The notes below the pieces were generated by a model. The model made no database searches. It saw only the letters and a program-made list of their open reading frames with translations, and had not been told where the DNA came from. A DNA stretch of 64,000 bases, taken from NCBI GenBank assembly GCA_049510745.1, contig JBEKYR010000010.1, positions 64,001 through 128,000 on the forward strand, read 5' to 3'. Source of the stretch: Verrucomicrobiota bacterium. GTDB lineage: Bacteria > Verrucomicrobiota > Verrucomicrobiia > Limisphaerales > Palsa-1400. The first letter of the stretch is position 1, and every line of letters starts with the position of its first letter. This document shows positions 11,004 to 21,082 of this stretch, piece after piece. A program made the position numbers and the translations under genes.

Positions 11004-11578
11004 ACAAGGACAAGACAGGGGCGCCAAGCCCGGCGCGCAAGCCTCTCAGCAATTCGTATTGGGACACGCTGAGCGAAGAGGAAAAGGAGTTGGTGCAATC
11101 GGTGTTGCGCAAGCCGGGGGTTTCCCTGCGCGAGGCGAGGGGGCTGGTCCCGCCGATGCGGGACGGTGAGGGGAAGGAGATAGGCCCGCCCGCCGTCGGG
11201 ACGCTCTCCAGGATTTCGCAGGAACTGCGGACGGAGGAAATGCTCTTGGAGATCGAGGCTGACACGGAGCTGGCGAAAGTCATTTGCGGGAAACTCCGGT
11301 CCGGCGCGCTCAGGTCACAGGTGCAGGAGCGGTTGTTGGATGAAATCATGGAAGTAATTGGCGAGGAGGTCAGGCACAAGAGCCTGCGCCGAATGGACCC
11401 CGCCATCCGGACGGCCTCCGCCCGCCTGTTGCTCAAGCGGGCCGACCAACGGCGGGCGGACCGGCGGCAGAAATTCCTCGAGGCGCGAGCCAGGAGAATT
11501 GAAGCCGGACCGACCCGGCCCCACTTGACCGAAGAAGACAAGCAACGGCGTCTAAAGGAACTCCTGGAAATTGCCTGA
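11000..11578 (+). CDS. Putative terminase small subunit (Mu gp27/DUF3486-like)
   Basis: N-terminal HTH-like segment (DTLSEEEKELVQSVL...SLREAR...GTLSRI), helical C-terminus; TGATG overlap with TerL. Confidence 0.55.
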   Translation: MNKDKTGAPSPARKPLSNSYWDTLSEEEKELVQSVLRKPGVSLREARGLVPPMRDGEGKEIGPPAVGTLSRISQELRTEEMLLEIEADTELAKVICGKLRSGALRSQVQERLLDEIMEVIGEEVRHKSLRRMDPAIRTASARLLLKRADQRRADRRQKFLEARARRIEAGPTRPHLTEEDKQRRLKELLEIA

Positions 11579-13119
11579 TGCCGAAAAAATCCAGATCTGT
11601 TTGGCCAGAGCCGCCCAGCGGCCCCAAAGGCCGTCTCCGCGACCGGCTGCTGAAATACCAGCAGCGGTGGGTGGACGATGAATCGCGCTGGAAATTCGGC
11701 CTGATGTCGCGCCAGGTGGGAAAAGATTTTGCCTCCGGGTACGAAGGCGTTTTCGATTGCATGCGCGCCGACGCGGTCGGGAAAAGAACCGATTGGCTGA
11801 TCGTAGCGCCGTCCGAGCGGCAATCGTTGGAATCGCTGGAGAAGTGGAAGTTCTGGGCCAAAGCATTCAAAGGCGTCCTCGAAGACTATGTGGAAAAGCG
11901 CGAAGGCGGCAAAGAAAGCCTGCTCAAATCCGCCACGATCACCTTCCCGTTCGGCAGCCGCGTGATTGCGGTGCCGGGCAAGCCGGACACGGTGCGCGGG
12001 TTCAGCGCGAACGTATTATTGACGGAGTTCGCCTACTTCGAGCAGCCCGACGCCACCTGGCGGGCGATCCTGCCCAGCATCACCAACCCGATTCGCGGCG
12101 GCGTCAAAAAGGTCCGCCTCATCACCACGCCCAACGGCATCGGCAACAAGACGCATGACATCTGGGTCAAGAACCACAAGCCAATCAGCGGACAATTAGT
12201 GAATGGAGGAATCAGTGAATCAGTGAATGCCGAATTCAACAATTCACTCATTCAAACCTCAACTATTGCCGGCGCGTCCGCGCCGGTCTGGTCGTGCCAT
12301 TTCGTCCCGATCCAGGCCGCGGTCGGTGACGGCCTGCCCGTCAACCTCGACGAACTGCGCCAGGCGCTGGACGACCCGGAAGGCTGGGCCCAGGAATTTG
12401 AGTGCCAGTTCATCGACGTTCAGACGGTCCTGCTTCCCTACGAATTGATCGCCGCTTGCGAGAGCAGCGAGGCGACGGCCGCCGCGCCGCCGGATTTCTG
12501 GCTGGGCGGCGGCGCGGGGTCCCCGCCGCTGGTCATGGGCATTGACTTCGGGCGTCGCCGCGACCTGACGGTCGCCTGGAGCAACGCGCAACTGGGAGAC
12601 GTCGCGCGCACGGTGGAGGTGCTGGAATTGGATAAGATGAGCACGCCCGAGCAAGTCGAGTTGTTGCGCCCGCGCCTGCGGCAGGCCCGGCGCGTCTGCC
12701 TGGATTACACCGGGCCGGGCATCGGGCTGGGCGATTACCTGGCGAAGGAGTATGGCGAATGGAATCCGAGTCAACACAAATTCGGGAAGATCGAACTCTG
12801 CGCCTTCACGCCGGGGTTGAAAGTGGAGATTTTCTCCAAGCTGCGCATGGCCTTTGAGAAACGTTCCGTGCGCGTGCCGGTCAGCCGGGCGATTCGGGAA
12901 GACCTGCACAGCGTCAACCGCGTGAGCGGGGCGGCCGGGCAGGTCAGTTACCGCGCGCCGCACAACGCCGACGGCCACGCCGACCGTTGCACGGCCCTGG
13001 CCCTGGCCTGGCGCGCCGCCGGCGCCTCCACCGCCCCGGCCGCCAGCGCCCCCGTGAAAGTCCCGCCCCGTGGCGGCAACCTGGGCCTGGGCAAGGCCGG
13101 CGGGGAGATGTGGCCGTGA
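11578..13119 (+). CDS. terL: Terminase large subunit, Mu gp28/FluMu-type
   Basis: LLKYQQRW Q-motif, SRQVGK Walker A, VRGFSANVLLTEFA Walker B region, ITTPNG, QEFECQF; nuclease domain GIDFGRRRD, LDYTG, HADRCTALALA. Confidence 0.9.
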   Translation: MPKKSRSVWPEPPSGPKGRLRDRLLKYQQRWVDDESRWKFGLMSRQVGKDFASGYEGVFDCMRADAVGKRTDWLIVAPSERQSLESLEKWKFWAKAFKGVLEDYVEKREGGKESLLKSATITFPFGSRVIAVPGKPDTVRGFSANVLLTEFAYFEQPDATWRAILPSITNPIRGGVKKVRLITTPNGIGNKTHDIWVKNHKPISGQLVNGGISESVNAEFNNSLIQTSTIAGASAPVWSCHFVPIQAAVGDGLPVNLDELRQALDDPEGWAQEFECQFIDVQTVLLPYELIAACESSEATAAAPPDFWLGGGAGSPPLVMGIDFGRRRDLTVAWSNAQLGDVARTVEVLELDKMSTPEQVELLRPRLRQARRVCLDYTGPGIGLGDYLAKEYGEWNPSQHKFGKIELCAFTPGLKVEIFSKLRMAFEKRSVRVPVSRAIREDLHSVNRVSGAAGQVSYRAPHNADGHADRCTALALAWRAAGASTAPAASAPVKVPPRGGNLGLGKAGGEMWP

Positions 13120-13803: not shown

Positions 13804-15729
13804 TCACCAGTCTTTGATCCTGCCGGTTCGGTTTTTAACGGGCTGGTTTTCCGGCGCGAAGATCAACACTTTTTCGTCGTCCTTCTGCGCCTCGAGCAGT
13901 TGGCGGGCTTCTTGCGGGGTCATGCGCGCCTCGGCCACTGCCGCCGGTTCGCCGTTTTCCTGGCCTTTGTCGTTCTGATCGCCCTGCCGGGCTTGTTGCT
14001 GTGGCTTCTCCTGGTCTTTCCCGGCTTGTTCCTGGCGGGCCTTCTCCTCGTCCTTCTTTTGCTGGCCGGATTTGTTCTCCTGCGGCTGGTCCTTCTTTTG
14101 GTCCTGCTGGGATGATGGCTGTTGCTGGTTTTGATCCTTCTTTTTGTCCTGGTTTTGCTGCTGTTGCCGGTCTTTCTGGTCCTGGTCCTTTTGATCCTGG
14201 TTTTGGTCCTTTTTCTGTTGTTGCTGTTGCTGCTTTAGCTCCTCCAACTTATGTTTGACGTAGGCGAGGTTGTTTTTGGCGTCGAGATCGTTGGTGTCGA
14301 GGCGGAGGGCGCGGATAAAGCTCTCCACCGATTGCTGCCAGCATTGTTTCTTCTTTTCCGGGTCGGGCAGCGGCTCGCCCAGGCGGAAGAGGGTGTTGCC
14401 GAGGTTGAAATAGGCGTGCTGCTGCGATTGCGGGTCGGCAACGATGTCCGCGGAATTGAGCGCGGCGTTGAATTGGTCGAGGGCGCTGTCCAGCTTTTTT
14501 GCCTTGTAGGCGGCCGCGCCCGCGTCGTAATGCAGGCGGTAATCGTTGGTTTTTTGTTGCGAGAGCCGGTTGTATTCGTCGAACGAATCCTCAAAGTTTC
14601 CGGATTGAAAATCGCGAAAGGCGCGGGAGGGCGAGCCGTGGGCCGCCGGCGCCGCCAGGAGCAGAACCAGGAGGGCGGCGGTTTGCGGCAGCGCGGCCCC
14701 GGCGGGGGCGACGTCGGTCCGGCGCGAGCGCGGGCTTTCGGGCAGCAGCACCTCGATCACCAGGCAGAGGACGGCGAAGCCCAGCGGCCAATGATAGCGT
14801 TCGCGATAGACGCGCGCCAGGCGGGTTGTCTCCTCGGTTTTGGGCAGCGGCGCCAGGCCGCGCGCATAGAGTGTTTCCATCGGATTGGCTCCTTGCAGCG
14901 GCAGGTAAAACCCGCCGGCCTCGGTGGCGATTTGTTGCAGCAAGGTTTGGTTCAAGCGCGATTTGACCGCGTTGTCGTCGTCGTCCTTGACGAAAACCGG
15001 GTTGCCCTGCTCGTCCGGGACGCGGAGCAGTTCGCCCTCCGGCGTGCCGACGCCGATGGTGAAGATGCGCAGGCCGGCCTGGGCGGCTTCCTTGGCCGCG
15101 GCCATCGTTTCCGCCTCCGCATCGTGGTCTTCGCCGTCGGTGAAGAGGACCAAAACCTTATGATTGTCGTTGCCCTTCTCGAAGGCGGCGAGAGCGGTCC
15201 TGATCGCTTCGGCCAGCGCGGTGCCGCCTTGGGGAATGATGCCGACGGAGACGGCATCGACCGCCTCCTGGAAGGCGGCCTCGTCGAGCGTCAGCGGCGC
15301 CTGCAAGAAAGCCGAGCCGGCGAAAGCGACCAGGCCGAGGCGGTCGGTTTTGGCCAGGCGCATGAGGTCGATAATGGCGAGCTTGGCCTTGTTCAGCCGG
15401 TTGGGCGCCACGTCCTGGGCCAGCATGCTGCGCGAGGTGTCGATGGCGACGATAATGTCCAGGCCTTGCTGTTTGGCTTCCTCCCAGGCGAAGCCCCATT
15501 GCGGCCGGGCCAGCGCCAGCAGCACGCCGGCGACGGCCGCCACCAACAAGGCCAGCCGTACTTTCTGCCGCGCCGCCGAAACGCCGGCCGTCAGGCTGGG
15601 GAGCAAACGGGCGCGGACGAACTGCAGGACCAACTTTTGTTTGACGCGCCACGACCAGCAGAGAAATCCAATGAGCGCCGGGAGGACGGCGAGCAGGACC
15701 CAAAGCACTTGTGGTTGCGCGAATTTCAT
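13804..15729 (-). CDS. BatB/BatC-like fusion (VWA + TPR + Q/K/D-rich tail)
   Basis: DTSRSM MIDAS, LFTDGED, TPRs (AYFNLGNTLF), low-complexity QKD linker, KDW C-terminus. Confidence 0.88.
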   Translation of the reverse strand: MKFAQPQVLWVLLAVLPALIGFLCWSWRVKQKLVLQFVRARLLPSLTAGVSAARQKVRLALLVAAVAGVLLALARPQWGFAWEEAKQQGLDIIVAIDTSRSMLAQDVAPNRLNKAKLAIIDLMRLAKTDRLGLVAFAGSAFLQAPLTLDEAAFQEAVDAVSVGIIPQGGTALAEAIRTALAAFEKGNDNHKVLVLFTDGEDHDAEAETMAAAKEAAQAGLRIFTIGVGTPEGELLRVPDEQGNPVFVKDDDDNAVKSRLNQTLLQQIATEAGGFYLPLQGANPMETLYARGLAPLPKTEETTRLARVYRERYHWPLGFAVLCLVIEVLLPESPRSRRTDVAPAGAALPQTAALLVLLLAAPAAHGSPSRAFRDFQSGNFEDSFDEYNRLSQQKTNDYRLHYDAGAAAYKAKKLDSALDQFNAALNSADIVADPQSQQHAYFNLGNTLFRLGEPLPDPEKKKQCWQQSVESFIRALRLDTNDLDAKNNLAYVKHKLEELKQQQQQQKKDQNQDQKDQDQKDRQQQQNQDKKKDQNQQQPSSQQDQKKDQPQENKSGQQKKDEEKARQEQAGKDQEKPQQQARQGDQNDKGQENGEPAAVAEARMTPQEARQLLEAQKDDEKVLIFAPENQPVKNRTGRIKDW

Positions 15730-15733
15730 GCGG

Positions 15734-16723
15734 TCAGGGCAGTTTTCTCCAGACGGTCTGGGCCAGGATCATTTCCAGGAGGAACACCGACAGCCCGGCG
15801 ATGGCCAGATGCCCGAACAACTCATCGTAATGCTGGTACTTTTTGACTTCCACTTCCGATTTTTCCAGCCGGTCGATCTCCGCGTAGATTTTTCGTAGGG
15901 TGTCCGCGCTGTCGGCGCGGTAATATTTTCCATTGGTCTTCTGCGCGATCTTCGTCAGCGTGTCCTCGTCCACATCCACATCAATGTACTGATAGCGCTT
16001 CTGTCCCATCGGATCAATGTACGGATACGGCGCCTTGCCCCGGATGCCGATGCCGATGGTATAGACTTTGACCGCGAGCGCCTGGGCGGCCTCCGCCGCA
16101 GTCAGGGGCTGGATTTTTCCCGAATTGTTCTGCCCATCGGTCATGAGAATGACGATCTTGCTTTTGTCCTTGAGGTCTTTGAGGCGGTTGAGGGCGGCCA
16201 TCAAGGCCGAGCCGATGGCGGTGCTGTTTTCATCGATCTTGCCGATGTCCAGGCGGTCGAGATTGCGCTGCAAAAAATCATGATCCAGCGTCAGGGGCGA
16301 GGCGATGTAGGCGTCCTTGGCGAAGGCGACCAGGCCGATGCGGTCATTGGGCCGGTTGTCGATGAATTTGCCCAGGACTTCCTTGGCCAGCTTGATGCGG
16401 CTGAGGCCCTCGCCGAAATCCTCCGAGCGCATGCTGCCGGAGAGGTCGATGGCGACGACGATGTCAATGCCGCTGGCCTTGATGTGGGATTCCCCGCGCA
16501 CCAGGCGGGGCTGGGCCAGGGCGACAATAAACAACGCCAGCGCCAGCCAGCGCAAATTGGCCAGGATGGCGCCGGCGCGGGATCGGCGCAGCCCGGATAT
16601 GGGGCGCACCAAATCGATCGACGAATAAACAAAGGAGGCGCTTTGGCCCAGCTTCCCCTTCAGCCACTCCAGCGCCGGCAGCAGAAGCAGCCCTGACAAA
16701 ACATAAGGATGGGCGAAGGTCAT
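15734..16723 (-). CDS. batA: BatA-like VWA domain protein
   Basis: MTFAHP N-terminus, DLSGSM MIDAS, TAIGSAL, MTDGQNNSG; ATGA overlap with the upstream gene. Confidence 0.88.
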   Translation of the reverse strand: MTFAHPYVLSGLLLLPALEWLKGKLGQSASFVYSSIDLVRPISGLRRSRAGAILANLRWLALALFIVALAQPRLVRGESHIKASGIDIVVAIDLSGSMRSEDFGEGLSRIKLAKEVLGKFIDNRPNDRIGLVAFAKDAYIASPLTLDHDFLQRNLDRLDIGKIDENSTAIGSALMAALNRLKDLKDKSKIVILMTDGQNNSGKIQPLTAAEAAQALAVKVYTIGIGIRGKAPYPYIDPMGQKRYQYIDVDVDEDTLTKIAQKTNGKYYRADSADTLRKIYAEIDRLEKSEVEVKKYQHYDELFGHLAIAGLSVFLLEMILAQTVWRKLP

Positions 16724-17322
16724 GGGGCGGTGGCGGCCGGCATGGCGGCGGCGGGTTGGGTTGGCTGGGGCGTCCAGACAGGTTCGGTTTCGTTGACCAG
16801 GCGCAGGGCGGCGTCGTGCAAGGCGCGCAGTCCGATCTCCGCCGGCTCGTATTTGGCGAACTTGATGAGATCGCAACCTTCCAGGAAATCGCCCAGGCTT
16901 TGTTTTTGAGCGGCTGTCAATAAATCGGTGCTTTGCAATTCGTAAAGAAACTCCTCCGTCGTGCGTTCGGGCGCGTGGAAATTGAACCGCTCCTCGAGAT
17001 AGGCCCGGACGGCGTCGGAAACGGCGATGGAAAACGGCTTGGGCTGGCTCAACAGGGAGAGCGCCTGATCGAGGCGGCGGCGCGCCCGCACGTGCGGCGG
17101 GACGGGCGGAACGAGCGGGACGGCGGCGGCCTTTTTGCGCCGGTAACGCCACACCAGCCAGGCCGCGGCCAGCGCCGCCAGGAGGGCGGCGATGCAGAAG
17201 AACCAAAGCCAGCCGTTGGGAATCTGGATGAGCGGTTTGAGGACGTCGTGAAAGACCAGCGGAGGCGCGTTGGTGGCGGCGGGCGATTGGGCGGGAATGA
17301 TGAGAGCGAAATTCGTGTTCAT
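16720..17322 (-). CDS. DUF4381-like single-TM protein of the Bat operon
   Basis: TM followed by PPHVRARRRL, ERTTEEFL, DLIKFAKY. Confidence 0.78.
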   Translation of the reverse strand: MNTNFALIIPAQSPAATNAPPLVFHDVLKPLIQIPNGWLWFFCIAALLAALAAAWLVWRYRRKKAAAVPLVPPVPPHVRARRRLDQALSLLSQPKPFSIAVSDAVRAYLEERFNFHAPERTTEEFLYELQSTDLLTAAQKQSLGDFLEGCDLIKFAKYEPAEIGLRALHDAALRLVNETEPVWTPQPTQPAAAMPAATAP

Positions 17323-18278
17323 GCTCGGCCGTGGCGCCGCCGCTTTTCGCGCGTTTCGAAGAACCGCCCCAGGGCCGCCGCATACGGTTCGCTGGCCCGC
17401 GCCTCGATGGTGTCGATCTTGGCCGAGCGCAACTGGCGGAACAGCTCGGACTGATGTTTGGCCCGGCGGAGGGCAAAGGCGCGGCGCTTGCGCGCGTCGT
17501 GCGTGTTGATCTCGATGGTTTCGCCGGTTTCGGCGTCGCTCAACTGCAACCGGCCCAGGGCGGGCAGTTCCAATTCAAAACGATCCACCACCTGGATGGC
17601 GATGACATCGTGGCGGCGGTTGGCCTGGCGAAGGGCCGGCAAGGTGCGCGGACCCAGCGTCGGCGAAACCAGATAGGCCGAGGCGCGGTTGGGATCATTG
17701 CGGGCGGCGGCGCCATGCTCGAAGAGGAAATCGGAAATAATCACGGCAATGGCGTGGCGGCGGGCCAAACGATTGAGCGCGTCGAGCGCCACGTTGAAAT
17801 TGGTGCCGCGCCGGCGGGGCTGGAAACAGAGGATTTCGCGAATCACGCGCAAGACGTGGCGCCGGCCTTTCCTGGGCGGGATGTATTTTTCCACTTCCTC
17901 GGTGAACAGGATCAGGCCGACCTTGTCGTTGTTGCGGATGGCGGAGAAGGCCAGGACCGAGCCGATCTCGGCCGCCAGCTCGCGTTTGGATTGGTCGCCG
18001 GAACCGAAGAGGCCCGACCCGCTCAGATCGACCACGAGCATGAGGGTCAGTTCGCGTTCCTCGACAAACTTCTTGACGAAGGGATGGTTCATGCGGGCGG
18101 TCACGTTCCAGTCGATGGAGCGGACCTCGTCGCCCGGCTGGTATTCGCGCACCTCCTCGAAATTCATGCCCTGGCCCTTGAAGACGCTGTGGTACTGCCC
18201 GCCCATCGTCTCGCTGACCAGGCGGGTGGTGCGCAGCTCGATCTGCCGGATTTTCTTGAGGATTTCGCGCGGGATCAT
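17319..18278 (-). CDS. DUF58 domain protein
   Basis: GQGMNFEEVREYQPGDEVRSIDWNVTAR, VDLSGS, ISDF. Confidence 0.93.
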   Translation of the reverse strand: MIPREILKKIRQIELRTTRLVSETMGGQYHSVFKGQGMNFEEVREYQPGDEVRSIDWNVTARMNHPFVKKFVEERELTLMLVVDLSGSGLFGSGDQSKRELAAEIGSVLAFSAIRNNDKVGLILFTEEVEKYIPPRKGRRHVLRVIREILCFQPRRRGTNFNVALDALNRLARRHAIAVIISDFLFEHGAAARNDPNRASAYLVSPTLGPRTLPALRQANRRHDVIAIQVVDRFELELPALGRLQLSDAETGETIEINTHDARKRRAFALRRAKHQSELFRQLRSAKIDTIEARASEPYAAALGRFFETREKRRRHGRA

Positions 18279-18302
18279 GGGGGGAATTGCATGGCTGCAA
18301 AC

Positions 18303-18331
18303 TTGCCATCCGTCCGGGTATCAGGTAAAGT
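18303..18331 (+). promoter_or_regulatory. Sigma70-type promoter of the TA cassette (leaderless)
   Basis: TTGCCA-17 nt-TAAAGT, with ATG 7 nt after the -10 box. Confidence 0.6.
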
Positions 18332-18338
18332 TCCTTGC

Positions 18339-18572
18339 ATGAGTGCGTCGGAAATTCTCGAAGCGGCGAAAGCTCTTCCGCAAGAAGAGCGGATCAAACT
18401 TGCGCAAGACTTTTGGGAAATTATCACGGAAGACGGATACGACCCCGATCTGACGCCGGAACAGGCGGCGGAACTTGATCGCCGTCTCGCTGACTTCGAA
18501 GCCAATCCGCACGAAGGAATTCCTTGGGAGCAAGTTAAGGCTGAACTCAGCCAGCGTTTCGGTTGGAAATGA
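18339..18572 (+). CDS. Addiction module antitoxin (TIGR02574-like)
   Basis: ALPQEERIKLAQDFWE...ELDRRLADFEANP..GIPWEQVK. Confidence 0.88.
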   Translation: MSASEILEAAKALPQEERIKLAQDFWEIITEDGYDPDLTPEQAAELDRRLADFEANPHEGIPWEQVKAELSQRFGWK

Positions 18573-18871
18573 GCCGCCGGGACATTTTCAAACGGGCGGC
18601 GCGCCTCGAATTCGTTGAGGCTACAGTTTGGTATGAAAAACAGCGCCCAGGATTGGGGCGGGAGTTCGTCTTGGAGGTCGAGCGCGCGCTGCAACGTGCG
18701 CAAGCCAATCCGGAACGTTTCCCAATGGTTCGGCGACAGGCCCGGAAGATTCGTTTGCGGCGATTTTCTCGTTACAGCATTTATTTCGCCGTCAAAGACG
18801 GAGCATTCTCCATTTTGGCGGTTTTTCACGGTTCGCGTGACCCGGAGGAACTCTGGCGGCGGCTGGGATGA
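18569..18871 (+). CDS. RelE/ParE family toxin
   Basis: WYEKQRPGLGREF, NPERFP, LRRFSRYSIYF, LAVFHGSRDP; ATGA-coupled to the antitoxin. Confidence 0.88.
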   Translation: MSRRDIFKRAARLEFVEATVWYEKQRPGLGREFVLEVERALQRAQANPERFPMVRRQARKIRLRRFSRYSIYFAVKDGAFSILAVFHGSRDPEELWRRLG

Positions 18872-19021
18872 AAACTTCGCGAGCGCTTCGGCCACAACGT
18901 GGTTCGTGTGAATCTCGATCTGCCGGACGTTGTTGGTAATCTCTTGAGGAATCATGGCTTGGAGAATGCACCTATTGGGTCGTTTCCAAATCGTAGAAAT
19001 GCCTCACGCATGGACTCCATC

Positions 19022-20014
19022 TCACGGCACGGGCAGTTCGTTGAAAATCTTGGTGATGATGGTCTCGCTGCTTTTTTCCTCGGCCTCCGCCTCGTAGGTC
19101 ACCGTCACCCGGTGGCGCAAGACATCCATCCCGATGCTCTTGACATCCTGCGGCGTGACGTAGCCGCGCCCGCGCAGAAAGGCATAGGCCTTGGCCGCGA
19201 GAGTCAAGGCAATGGTGGCGCGGGGCGAGGCGCCGAGTTGAATCAACCCTTGCAGGCCCGCGATTTTGTAGGCGGCCGGGTCGCGCGTGCAGCAGACCAG
19301 ATCGACGATGTAATCCTTGACCTTGTCGTCAATATAAATGTCGTTGAGCACCTGCCGGGCTTCGAGGACTTGCTGGGGAGAGACCACCCGGCCGGGGAAG
19401 GCCACGGCGCTGGTGCGGGCCATCAAATCCAGAATCTGCCGCTCCTCCTGGCGGGACGGGTAAACGATTTTGAGCTTCAACATGAAGCGGTCCACCTGCG
19501 CTTCGGGCAGCGGATAGGTGCCCTCCTGTTCGATTGGGTTCTGCGTCGCCAGGACCAGGAAGGGCTCCTCCAGTTTGAACGTCTGGTCGCCGATGGTGAC
19601 CTGCTTTTCCTGCATCGCTTCCAGCAACGCGCTTTGCACCTTGGCGGGCGAGCGGTTGATTTCGTCGGCCAGGATGAGGTTGGCGAAAATGGGGCCGCGC
19701 CGGGTGGTAAAAGCGCCGGTCTGCGGATTGTAGATTTGCGTGCCGATCAAGTCGGCGGGCAGGAGGTCCGGGGTGAATTGGAGCCGGGAAAACTTGACGT
19801 CGATGGCGGCGGCCAGAGCCTTGACGGAAAGGGTTTTGGCCAGGCCGGGAACGCCCTCCAAGAGGACGTGGCCGTTGGCCAGCAAGCCGATGACCAGGCG
19901 TTCGACGAGGTAAGTCTGGCCGACGACCACTTTGCCGATTTCGTTAAAGAGCGGGCGCGCAAAAGCGCTGGCCCGCTGCACTTGCTCGTTCAGGGCGCTG
20001 ATTCCGGTATTCAT
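19022..20014 (-). CDS. moxR: MoxR family AAA+ ATPase
   Basis: GVPGLAKT, QFTPDLLPAD, ADEINR, ATQNPIEQEGTYPLPEAQVDRF, GASPRA. Confidence 0.95.
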   Translation of the reverse strand: MNTGISALNEQVQRASAFARPLFNEIGKVVVGQTYLVERLVIGLLANGHVLLEGVPGLAKTLSVKALAAAIDVKFSRLQFTPDLLPADLIGTQIYNPQTGAFTTRRGPIFANLILADEINRSPAKVQSALLEAMQEKQVTIGDQTFKLEEPFLVLATQNPIEQEGTYPLPEAQVDRFMLKLKIVYPSRQEERQILDLMARTSAVAFPGRVVSPQQVLEARQVLNDIYIDDKVKDYIVDLVCCTRDPAAYKIAGLQGLIQLGASPRATIALTLAAKAYAFLRGRGYVTPQDVKSIGMDVLRHRVTVTYEAEAEEKSSETIITKIFNELPVP

Positions 20015-20083: not shown

Positions 20084-20218
20084 TCAGGCGCACGTAAAAA
20101 CAGGAACCGTGATGGCAAGCTGGAATCGTTTCCTGGCCCAAAGCGCGAAACAGCGGCGGGACTCACCCGGCCAGAAAATGGCGGAAATGACGACGTTGGT
20201 GTCAACGACGACGTTCAT
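20084..20218 (-). pseudogene. Truncated PIN-domain toxin (N-terminal 44 aa only)
   Basis: Hand translation MNVVVDTNVVISAIFWPGESRRCFALWARKRFQLAITVPVFTCA*; ATGA-coupled to the AbrB gene. Confidence 0.75.
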
Positions 20219-20490
20219 CCCCGCTTCCGCCGTTTTTCGTCGCGATATTCGGCGACAACCTCTCGCACCATTTCTTCGTCTTCAGCCGTTTGATAGCGAG
20301 TGAGCGATCCGGCGGTGGCGATGACGGCCCGCAGTTCCCGTTCCGTTGGCTCGGTCAGGGGTGTGACATACAATCCATCTCCGACCTCCGTCACGCGCAG
20401 GGTGGCGCCCGGCTTGATTTTCTTTCGTCGGCGGAATTCTTCCGGCAACTCCACTTGCCCTGTTTGCGAAACACTCACTGTCGTTGTCAT
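20215..20490 (-). CDS. AbrB/MazE/SpoVT family antitoxin
   Basis: VSQTGQVELPEEFRRRKKIKPG swapped-hairpin signature. Confidence 0.85.
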   Translation of the reverse strand: MTTTVSVSQTGQVELPEEFRRRKKIKPGATLRVTEVGDGLYVTPLTEPTERELRAVIATAGSLTRYQTAEDEEMVREVVAEYRDEKRRKRG

Positions 20491-20520
20491 GGGCAAAGCT
20501 TACCTCATGGCTCGCCGGCT

Positions 20521-20871
20521 TTACAGTTCCAAAGTGTGTTTCAACGCCGCATCCACGGCTTTCATCCCCGGGAAGTTGCCCAGCACGGAATCAATTTCAG
20601 AATCCAGCACCGTCGCCAGATTGTCCGATATGATAACGGAGTCCAACCGCAGGCCGGTGGTTTTACCGTCCGCAGAATTGACGCCGACAAAAATCCGGCT
20701 TGAATGACCGCGCCGGGCAAGGTTGCTCGAAATCATGGCGACGATGGTTTGTGTCAAACCGCTGTCGAGGTTGTTCCGCTGAATGACCAACGCGGGACGA
20801 CGCTTAGCCGCGCGCAGATCGGAATTTGGGAAAAGCACCAGGACAACATCACCGCGCCGGGTCTTTGTCAT
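20521..20871 (-). CDS. PemK/MazF family toxin
   Basis: RRGDVVLVLFPNSD...KRRPALVIQ...GLRLDSVI. Confidence 0.9.
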   Translation of the reverse strand: MTKTRRGDVVLVLFPNSDLRAAKRRPALVIQRNNLDSGLTQTIVAMISSNLARRGHSSRIFVGVNSADGKTTGLRLDSVIISDNLATVLDSEIDSVLGNFPGMKAVDAALKHTLEL

Positions 20872-21082
20872 AAATGTCGGCTTCAGGTCGTTCCCAATCG
20901 TTGGCGAACGTCTTCAATCGCGCGCGCAGTTCGGCGGCTTGAGCCTCGTCAATTCCCCGCGCCCGCAAGTCAACGCCGCTGGTTTCAAGGAAGGTCACCA
21001 GCACGCGTGATTGGTTCACTTGCGGAGGTGTCTCGACGAGTTCCACTTTGCCGTTTCTATATGTGCCTTCGACAGTCAGCAT
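20849..21082 (-). CDS. Putative antitoxin of the MazF toxin
   Basis: MLTVEGTYRNGKVEL N-terminus, acidic C-terminus DWERPEADIYD; overlaps the toxin start. Confidence 0.75.
   Translation of the reverse strand: MLTVEGTYRNGKVELVETPPQVNQSRVLVTFLETSGVDLRARGIDEAQAAELRARLKTFANDWERPEADIYDKDPAR

Follow-up and report, generated by a model that had tools for sequence, protein, structure and literature searches.

The window analysed here, a 64,000-nucleotide (nt) stretch of a Verrucomicrobiota bacterium (assembly GCA_049510745.1, contig JBEKYR010000010.1, positions 64,001 to 128,000), carries between its moxR and DUF58 genes a toxin-antitoxin pair encoded on the strand opposite to the operon, and the reverse strand of this pair is covered by a single open reading frame (ORF) of 226 codons. 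Judged by comparison with the same junction in relatives, this bridging frame is real and selected, and it is apparently undescribed in print. We put the probability that the frame is kept open to protect expression of the downstream operon genes at roughly 0.8.

The host genes occur in the order MoxR, DUF58, DUF4381, BatA and BatB/C, which is that of a Bat-type MoxR operon (the Bat and DUF4381 matches being below cut-off). A preliminary description, made from the letters of the window, had placed a plus-strand toxin-antitoxin cassette between the first two genes and had traced along the operon strand a relay of moxR stop, 1 nt, an ORF of 22 amino acids (aa), ATGA, a 226-aa ORF, ATGA and DUF58. 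All of its coordinates and the relay itself were reproduced (Table 1). ATGA overlaps are present at both joints of the bridge, with the 22-aa ORF at 18952-18955 and with the DUF58 start at 18278. Over 18275-18955 the three minus-strand frames contain 0, 9 and 4 stops, and the open one lies in the same register as the toxin and is shifted relative to the antitoxin. The 743-nt insert consists of the 22-aa remnant, a displaced copy of the DUF58 start (hereafter the arm), toxin, antitoxin and linker, with nothing left over.

Table 1. Features of the moxR-DUF58 junction and its operon in the window.
Feature	Position	Strand	Remarks
moxR-type AAA+ ATPase, upstream host gene	19022..20014	-	PF07726, PF17863; stop at 19024-19022
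22-aa relay ORF	18952..19020	-	begins 1 nt past the moxR stop; ATGA overlap with the displaced start
84-nt arm, displaced copy of DUF58 codons 1-28	18872..18955	-	provides the bridge ATG
226-codon bridge ORF over arm, toxin, antitoxin and promoter	18275..18955	-	no Pfam/NCBIfam family
ParE/RelE-superfamily toxin, 100 aa, intact	18569..18871	+	PF05016, 30.2 bits, cut-off 23
Addiction-module antitoxin, 77 aa	18339..18572	+	PF09720; TIGR02574 over cut-off; ATGA-coupled to the toxin
Promoter-like site TTGCCA-17-TAAAGT, 7 nt before the antitoxin ATG	18303..18331	+	1 found vs 0.3 expected
60-nt linker, antitoxin start to DUF58 start	18279..18338	.	length a multiple of 3
DUF58/vWA gene, intact, without Shine-Dalgarno-like motif ahead of its start	17319..18278	-	PF01882, PF13519
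Downstream operon genes: DUF4381-like, BatA-like, BatB/C-like	13804..17322	-	Bat and DUF4381 matches below curated cut-offs

The family matches agree with the earlier assignment of the two plus-strand genes, and a family-level antitoxin match with a coupled ParE/RelE toxin downstream places the pair, by sequence, among type II addiction modules. The promoter that the cassette was said to own is represented by one promoter-like site; a similar box precedes the antitoxin in 32 of 33 junction pairs, and given the short distance to the ATG we infer that the antitoxin transcript is leaderless. The degenerate DUF58 start reported beyond the toxin stop also held up, agreeing with the true start at 50 of 78 and 51 of 84 bases and scoring 21 in a genome-wide anchored test in which 20 was reached by 3 of 2991 permuted comparisons. 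A family search of the window cassette's proteins matched no transposase or integrase, as had been noted before. An opposite-strand gene between co-directional operon genes is the layout of a noncontiguous operon, and moxR and DUF58 are adjacent in 61 of 100 relatives. A terminator-like hairpin on the operon strand (18660-18644) was not counted as a signal, two such hairpins having been found against 1.4 expected.

Taken as one copy, the open frame of the window is not remarkable. DUF58 begins with ATGAT, so that any frame in that phase ends in ATGA, with a prior of 1 in 3, and the antisense frame in toxin register is stop-poor by nature, remaining open after synonymous recoding with a mean probability of 0.245 per pair. 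Together these two properties make a single copy weak evidence, and it is the comparative data that carry the case.

For the comparison, 150 loci were picked by DUF58 similarity; 5 had no start, and merging of duplicates gave 111 loci, with the genome of the window (G000) included. They derive from Verrucomicrobiota, mostly Limisphaerales/Pedosphaera-type metagenome-assembled genomes. The junction is empty (≤120 nt) in 61 loci, holds cargo in 39 and lacks a moxR within reach in 11. Cargo at 39 of 100 complete junctions marks moxR-DUF58 as a hotspot for inserts in Limisphaerales-type Verrucomicrobiota, and the variable cargo between duplicated starts that had been expected of relatives is present. 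Antisense cargo consists of PF09720/ParE pairs. Sense cargo comprises DUF4160/DUF2442, PIN and UPF0175 pairs, T5orf172, KilA-N, VanY, HEAT, and protease and hydrolase genes, while unit borders are copies either of the DUF58 start or of the moxR 3' end; the proposal of antisense cargo between start copies was thus right as far as it went and has to be widened to sense cargo and duplicated moxR 3' ends. Among the 38 cargo proteins scanned, picked from 385 candidate cargo ORFs, no integrase or transposase family was found. By inspection, the unit ends are gene-start copies, and the similarity of 22 DUF58-start arms is detectable over 56-82 nt. Units also stack: in locus L351 a 272-nt start unit is amplified in tandem.

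Two further features of these arrays were seen. Palindromic repeats, labelled by eye as resembling repetitive extragenic palindromes, lie just behind the displaced start in L032, L033, L034, L040, L351 and L370, and the bridge frame is still open there. In L127 (341-2466 of the junction) and P0006, bridges over antisense pairs begin at duplicated starts of a nucleotidyltransferase-like sense cargo gene, which repeats the bridging design found at DUF58 one level down.

The frame that ends at the next ATGA is stop-free in 25 of 34 antisense units, located in 28 loci, as against 1 and 3 for the other two frames; over the 7048 codons of these units the ATGA frame contains 35 stops and the others 183 and 171. 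Complete antitoxin-toxin pairs were then compared with controls. Of 45 such pairs, 25 were assigned to the junction by motif and 8 more were reassigned by hand as moxR-DUF58 intervals, the latter after their stop counts had been seen; kin among the pairs are not independent. On this basis a stop-free operon-strand frame is present in all 33 junction pairs and in 1 of 12 control pairs. In a wider control, 17/17 junction pairs were open in any frame vs 16/68 others, and a paralogous junction is among the 16. When 151 genomes of the phylum were searched with a bridge profile, 25 places matched; that of the window has no stop, and the other 24, including three other sites in G000, have one to six.

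The absence of stops is confined to one phase and extends to codon use. Junction toxins contain no TTA, CTA or TCA codon in 3372, and their other phases hold 149 and 112 such triplets. The junction antitoxins, which are out of register with the bridge, use these three codons 21 times in 2566, unlike their partner toxins; they nevertheless have no stop triplet in the bridge phase over the same 2566 codons (controls, 16 in 939), against 21 and 56 in the other two phases. Synonymous recoding leads one to expect about 47 bridge-phase stops, and none was observed. The toxins concerned have a median identity of 40% and, clustered at 60% identity, fall into 11 groups. In 23 of 25 junction pairs the linker length is divisible by 3, across 15 different lengths, and 22 of these 23 linkers are stop-free (0.41 on shuffling). 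A later set, defined by at least two start matches in a search of 301 genomes, gave 28 analysed regions (two of the genomes having been seen before) with 25 units; those with an antisense pair are bridged exactly to ATGA in 14 of 14 cases and the other units in 5 of 11. Bridging frames at the junction are open and ATGA-ended much more often than in controls, which is the excess that the preliminary description had proposed to look for. From these counts, stop avoidance is phase-specific and the frame is kept by selection.

Tandem 7-nt repeats stand right before the start codon in several linkers (e.g. L039, L040, L117 and L191) and in the empty junctions L065, L141, L143, L323 and L346. By a loose test without control they occur in 15 of 25 linkers, and they are weak in this genome. 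Each added heptamer moves the reading frame by a single base, and such repeats could, judging from sequence, tune a new insert into the frame that ends in ATGA. We take these repeats to resemble the heptamer repeats of cyanobacteria.

What is selected may be the frame, its product or something else, and three other readings were weighed. The open frame could be a mere shadow of GC-rich codon use, descended from one lucky founder and free of selection. Such a reading draws on the stop-poor nature of the toxin-register antisense frame (a mean of 2 stops per control pair, and 24.5% open on recoding), on a single origin that is not rejected and on the 1-in-3 ATGA prior. It does not account for zero stops in the bridge phase only, across toxins of such low identity that show ordinary synonymous drift, nor for the out-of-register antitoxin and the 15 linker lengths that follow the same rule, nor for the fact that none of the 24 homologous modules elsewhere is open. 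The phase-specific absence of stops refutes this reading unless a mutational cause for it exists, and we hold it to be very improbable. A true overlapping gene, whose protein might for example regulate or act as a decoy for DUF58 or the toxin, would explain why ATG and frame are conserved and why gene callers predict such ORFs (1888 profile matches), and functional antisense overlapping genes do exist, on the available text of PMC9936078. The peptide, however, shows no sign of constraint. In close junction pairs the divergence at fourfold sites is 0.55 for toxins and 0.57 for antitoxins, compared with 0.52 and 0.51 in controls; this free drift indicates that the frame is selected and not the peptide. 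Bridge products of relatives are 26-67% identical to that of the window with 4 invariant columns, range from 186 to 494 aa, some with repeat insertions, and match no family in Pfam or NCBIfam, so that purifying selection on a second protein is not indicated by either fourfold sites or invariant columns, and an overlapping gene seems unlikely to us. We are equally sceptical of the idea that the arrangement is selected for antisense control, with the operon and toxin-antitoxin transcripts silencing each other as in a noncontiguous operon or excludon and the bridge being secondary. The two transcripts would overlap completely, and operons of this kind are known, some with toxin-antitoxin genes (PMC11034616, in the part available); but 61 of 100 complete junctions have no cargo, many hold sense cargo, the cargo turns over, and phase-specific stop avoidance is not predicted.

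The 22-aa ORF occupies the position and has the ATGA overlap first reported for it, but its nature as a simple relay ORF needed correction. Its last 18 codons correspond to the tail of a sense cargo gene of ~280 aa (tblastn, 12 of 15 residues, L353 and L185), and in both of these loci that gene ends at the ATGA position shared with the 22-aa ORF. By this homology the 22-aa ORF is a remnant of a deleted sense cargo gene, of which the gene was evidently lost and the relay kept. The ~280-aa gene itself has several His-rich motifs, has no match in Pfam or NCBIfam and recurs at the junction (L353:1176-2012, L185, L031 and L121).

We propose that selection on the frame acts through translation of the operon strand. 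Ribosomes that finish moxR would reinitiate first on the 22-aa remnant and then at the displaced start; from there they would translate the strand opposite the toxin-antitoxin pair and its promoter, terminate at the TGA within the true ATGA and reinitiate on DUF58, the bridge peptide being a by-product. A stretch of 700 nt left untranslated would leave the operon mRNA open to Rho or nucleases and would separate DUF58, for which no ribosome-binding motif is present, from the ribosomes that supply it; cargo changes that place a stop in the bridge frame would accordingly be purged, while the toxin-antitoxin pair, with its own promoter, would persist as an addiction module. The anatomy, its recurrence, phase-specific stop avoidance, the lack of constraint on the peptide, stacking and the discordance between toxin tree and host family are observed; translation of the bridge, polarity, the part of Rho, addiction and the route of recombination are inferred. 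Two Rho-like genes are present in G000 (C1:14150-15388 and C1:180548-181636), one over the TIGR00767 cut-off and one near-complete and just under it. Shine-Dalgarno-like motifs are rare, being found at 14.7% of 1290 starts against a background of 8-9.5%, and ahead of 5 of 111 DUF58 starts. For inserts >400 nt, a complete relay with gaps ≤15 nt is present in 23 of 32 loci, compared with 5% of shuffles, and the exact ATGA ending suggests that reinitiation adds to the avoidance of untranslated stretches. A look-up of RNA returned one weak run with 5% of words, and only short contigs from other strains.

The units appear to move without a recombinase of their own. The locus would be one unit of an accordion-like cassette array, composed of ~28 DUF58 start codons, cargo and a short linker followed by the next start copy, and such units could be acquired, piled up, exchanged among lineages and lost through recombination, either between copies of the start or within the core genes at the flanks. 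That homologous recombination of this kind accounts for stacking, clean loss and swapping is in our estimation somewhat better than an even bet. A recent local duplication is ruled out as the source of the displaced start of the window: this arm matches the local start at 40 of 57 bases, and the starts of 37 other genomes match better. Of the 22 arms compared, 10 have the local start as their best or second-best match. For the toxins of the window's family a single clade is rejected (p-AU 7.5e-5, approximately unbiased test), and this discordance of toxin tree and host family points to exchange between families, or old arrays with differential loss. The last 150 nt of moxR are 92% identical to those of a cassette-sharing other genus vs 89% and 86% within the genus, a difference too small to count.

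A different route, with the same outcome for the frame, would be a site-specific recombinase acting in trans that crosses near base 84 of DUF58, so that an incoming circle brings a replacement start and the host start is displaced, as happens with gene-restoring integrative elements. Arm ATG and toxin stop are separated by 84 nt in 14 of 18 units and again in 11 of 14 units from relatives, and the same offset is found at a paralogous DUF58 operon (L212), where the arm copies that operon's own, different start; arms that match the local start to base 81-84, and the closeness of almost half of the arms to it, point the same way. This is set against other breakpoints at about 56-71 and 76 nt, a fixed offset that one founder also predicts, the lack of integrase or transposase families among the scanned cargo proteins, the lack of any arm of the exact pattern in viral contigs (0 matches, which also gives no phage carrier), and the window's own family, in which the displaced copies and not the true starts look foreign. 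We regard this route as possible but rather doubtful.

Several observations weigh against protection of downstream expression by a bridge that spread through recombination at start copies. Nine of the 34 antisense units failed the automatic ATGA test, yet on inspection each has a covering frame: start-calling offsets are responsible in L078 and L130, the frame ends 4-15 nt before the start in L098, L123 and L092, L086 has a single stop at the far end within a toxin fragment, in L035 two units lie under a single frame of 494 codons, which terminates 23 nt into DUF58, and in L127 the relay runs through sense cargo. Sense cargo genes also inflate the relay test, real genes being open by nature. 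Empty junctions of 30-120 nt show no relay excess (17 of 30, vs 57% in shuffles), so DUF58 can manage without strict coupling; relays in long inserts and not in short gaps imply that long untranslated stretches are what is avoided. The junction toxins are not rejected as one clade (p-AU 0.38); the tree does not support several independent toxin recruitments, and the 33 pairs are accordingly not independent origins but evidence of long maintenance. Arms that match the local start to the positions given above (L358, L368, L212) favour a fixed crossover or gene conversion over random crossover. Finally, the paralogous junction has only 1 antisense pair (L212) and looser relays (9/16).

Beyond this junction the bridge profile matched 1888 predicted proteins, 482 of them at E below 1e-10. 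Among the best 150 of the 1888, 78 carry the main DUF58 arm, 3 the arm of the paralog and 69 neither by score, several of the latter having visibly decayed arms. The paralogous junction is a cargo hotspot as well: 78 of 80 metagenome loci were classed, with 28 holding cargo, 29 empty and 21 unresolved; L212, in which the bridging design recurs with the paralog's own start, is among the last. Elsewhere, a stop-free frame is present in 3 of 4 pairs that have opposite-strand genes on their flanks, without a convincing relay. A search of G000 for antisense genes under a bridge produced 24 candidates; only the present one and an AbrB-type gene on C42 looked real. The latter (C42:10048-10600) is an AbrB-type gene with a toxin fragment, antisense before a prephenate-dehydrogenase-like gene and partly under an open frame of 179 codons that is not relayed from or coupled to the upstream gene. 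The design first proposed for the 5' ends of core genes is concentrated at moxR-DUF58 and is not a general property of core-gene starts; the bridging rule can be stated firmly for this junction, and at other sites of these genomes it is unproven.

Partial copies of gene starts or ends around small cargo are frequent in G000, and only the 5' copy described here has a bridge to the true start. Some 20 genes are accompanied, at a distance of 0.4-4.7 kb, by a 25-90 nt copy of their own start or end, with small and often toxin-antitoxin-like cargo in between. Such copies occur at C4 (54587, 59560), C1 (186027, 125885), C14 (94639), C22 (22267), C23 (28776), C7, C77, C29, C62 and C48, with 5' copies at C41, C59, C1 (280851), C24 and C23. 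A permuted control gave almost none for 3' ends, and duplication of gene ends seems to be a common insertion scar in this genome. In L155, L161 and L170, away from moxR-DUF58, units flanked by direct repeats that end in GTGA contain another addiction-module family, and an open antisense frame extends from each repeat to the following one. In the window itself, two more toxin-antitoxin loci, all in sense orientation, lie directly upstream of moxR (20215-21082, minus strand, and about 20110-20218): a small gene with a PemK/MazF toxin (PF02452), and an AbrB/MazE antitoxin (PF04014) with a PIN toxin judged by eye to be truncated. A 513-aa ORF at 11578-13119 (plus strand), by eye similar to the large subunit of phage terminase, converges on the downstream end of the operon.

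Tentatively, and at somewhat less than even odds, we suggest a distinct class of recombinase-free mobile cassette, in which the unit is itself a reading frame, the start copy serves as both recombination handle and ribosome entry, the reverse strand carries an addiction module, and the lineage has been dual-coded for so long that the codons closing the opposite strand have been lost. The locus would be a clean natural example in which an open frame is selected although its product is not. As for annotation, spacers of this kind may make up hundreds of predicted 'proteins', such as the stronger profile matches above. If the rule is general, many shadow ORFs opposite small inserted genes would be spacers whose translation lets inserts settle safely inside operons, and which foreign DNA can remain in an operon would depend on transcription-translation coupling. 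A literature search that lay mostly outside subscription journals and supplements returned no account of selected stop-free bridging frames over inserted antisense genes, and none of cassettes at moxR-DUF58.

Among known systems, gene-restoring integrative elements are phages and islands that bring a replacement gene end. The present unit resembles them in having a displaced partial copy of the target at one end and the intact gene at the other; it differs in that it contains no recombinase and that its displaced copy keeps the ATG and heads a selected open frame. The minimal mobile elements of Neisseria presumably share small, recombinase-free variable cargo between conserved genes, and turnover is alike in the two. 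Antisense overlapping genes such as Pseudomonas olg1 and olg2 reportedly have products that are functional or under purifying selection. For olg1/gene 10 of phage Fc02, a functional product or one under purifying selection is described in the available text of PMC9936078. What is shared with such genes is a long open frame opposite a gene, and what differs is a peptide that is here without constraint.

In the noncontiguous operons and excludons of Staphylococcus aureus, co-directional genes are split by an opposite-strand gene, with insertion into an operon as the proposed origin; transcription must cross an untranslated region, which is called intriguing and is explained by uncoupled ('runaway') transcription in Gram-positives (PMC11034616, in the part available). 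The layout and the proposed origin are shared here, whereas the open coupled frame, the Rho-bearing organism and the mobile cassette with a duplicated gene start are not. How RNA polymerase crosses an untranslated antisense gene is the open problem in those operons, and the present locus may offer a sequence-level answer for an organism with Rho. Recombinase-free toxin-antitoxin islets, for which spread by homologous recombination at flanking core genes has been proposed, are likewise small variable cargo between conserved genes, patchy and eroding to remnants (here L006 and the 22-aa ORF); in the account available they have palindromic res-like duplications and neither a duplicated gene start nor a reverse-strand constraint (PMC13617665). 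In integron cassettes, untranslated or poorly translated inserts lower downstream mRNA, according to the part available of PMC11511950. The arrays described here resemble integron arrays in their stacked cassettes, in toxin-antitoxin cargo and, as would follow from the proposed coupling, in downstream mRNA set by translation of the preceding cassette; unlike in integrons, no integrase family was found among the proteins scanned, the units are bounded by copies of host gene starts, and the protective frame runs opposite to the cargo. By the features tested, the unit is neither an integron cassette nor an insertion sequence.

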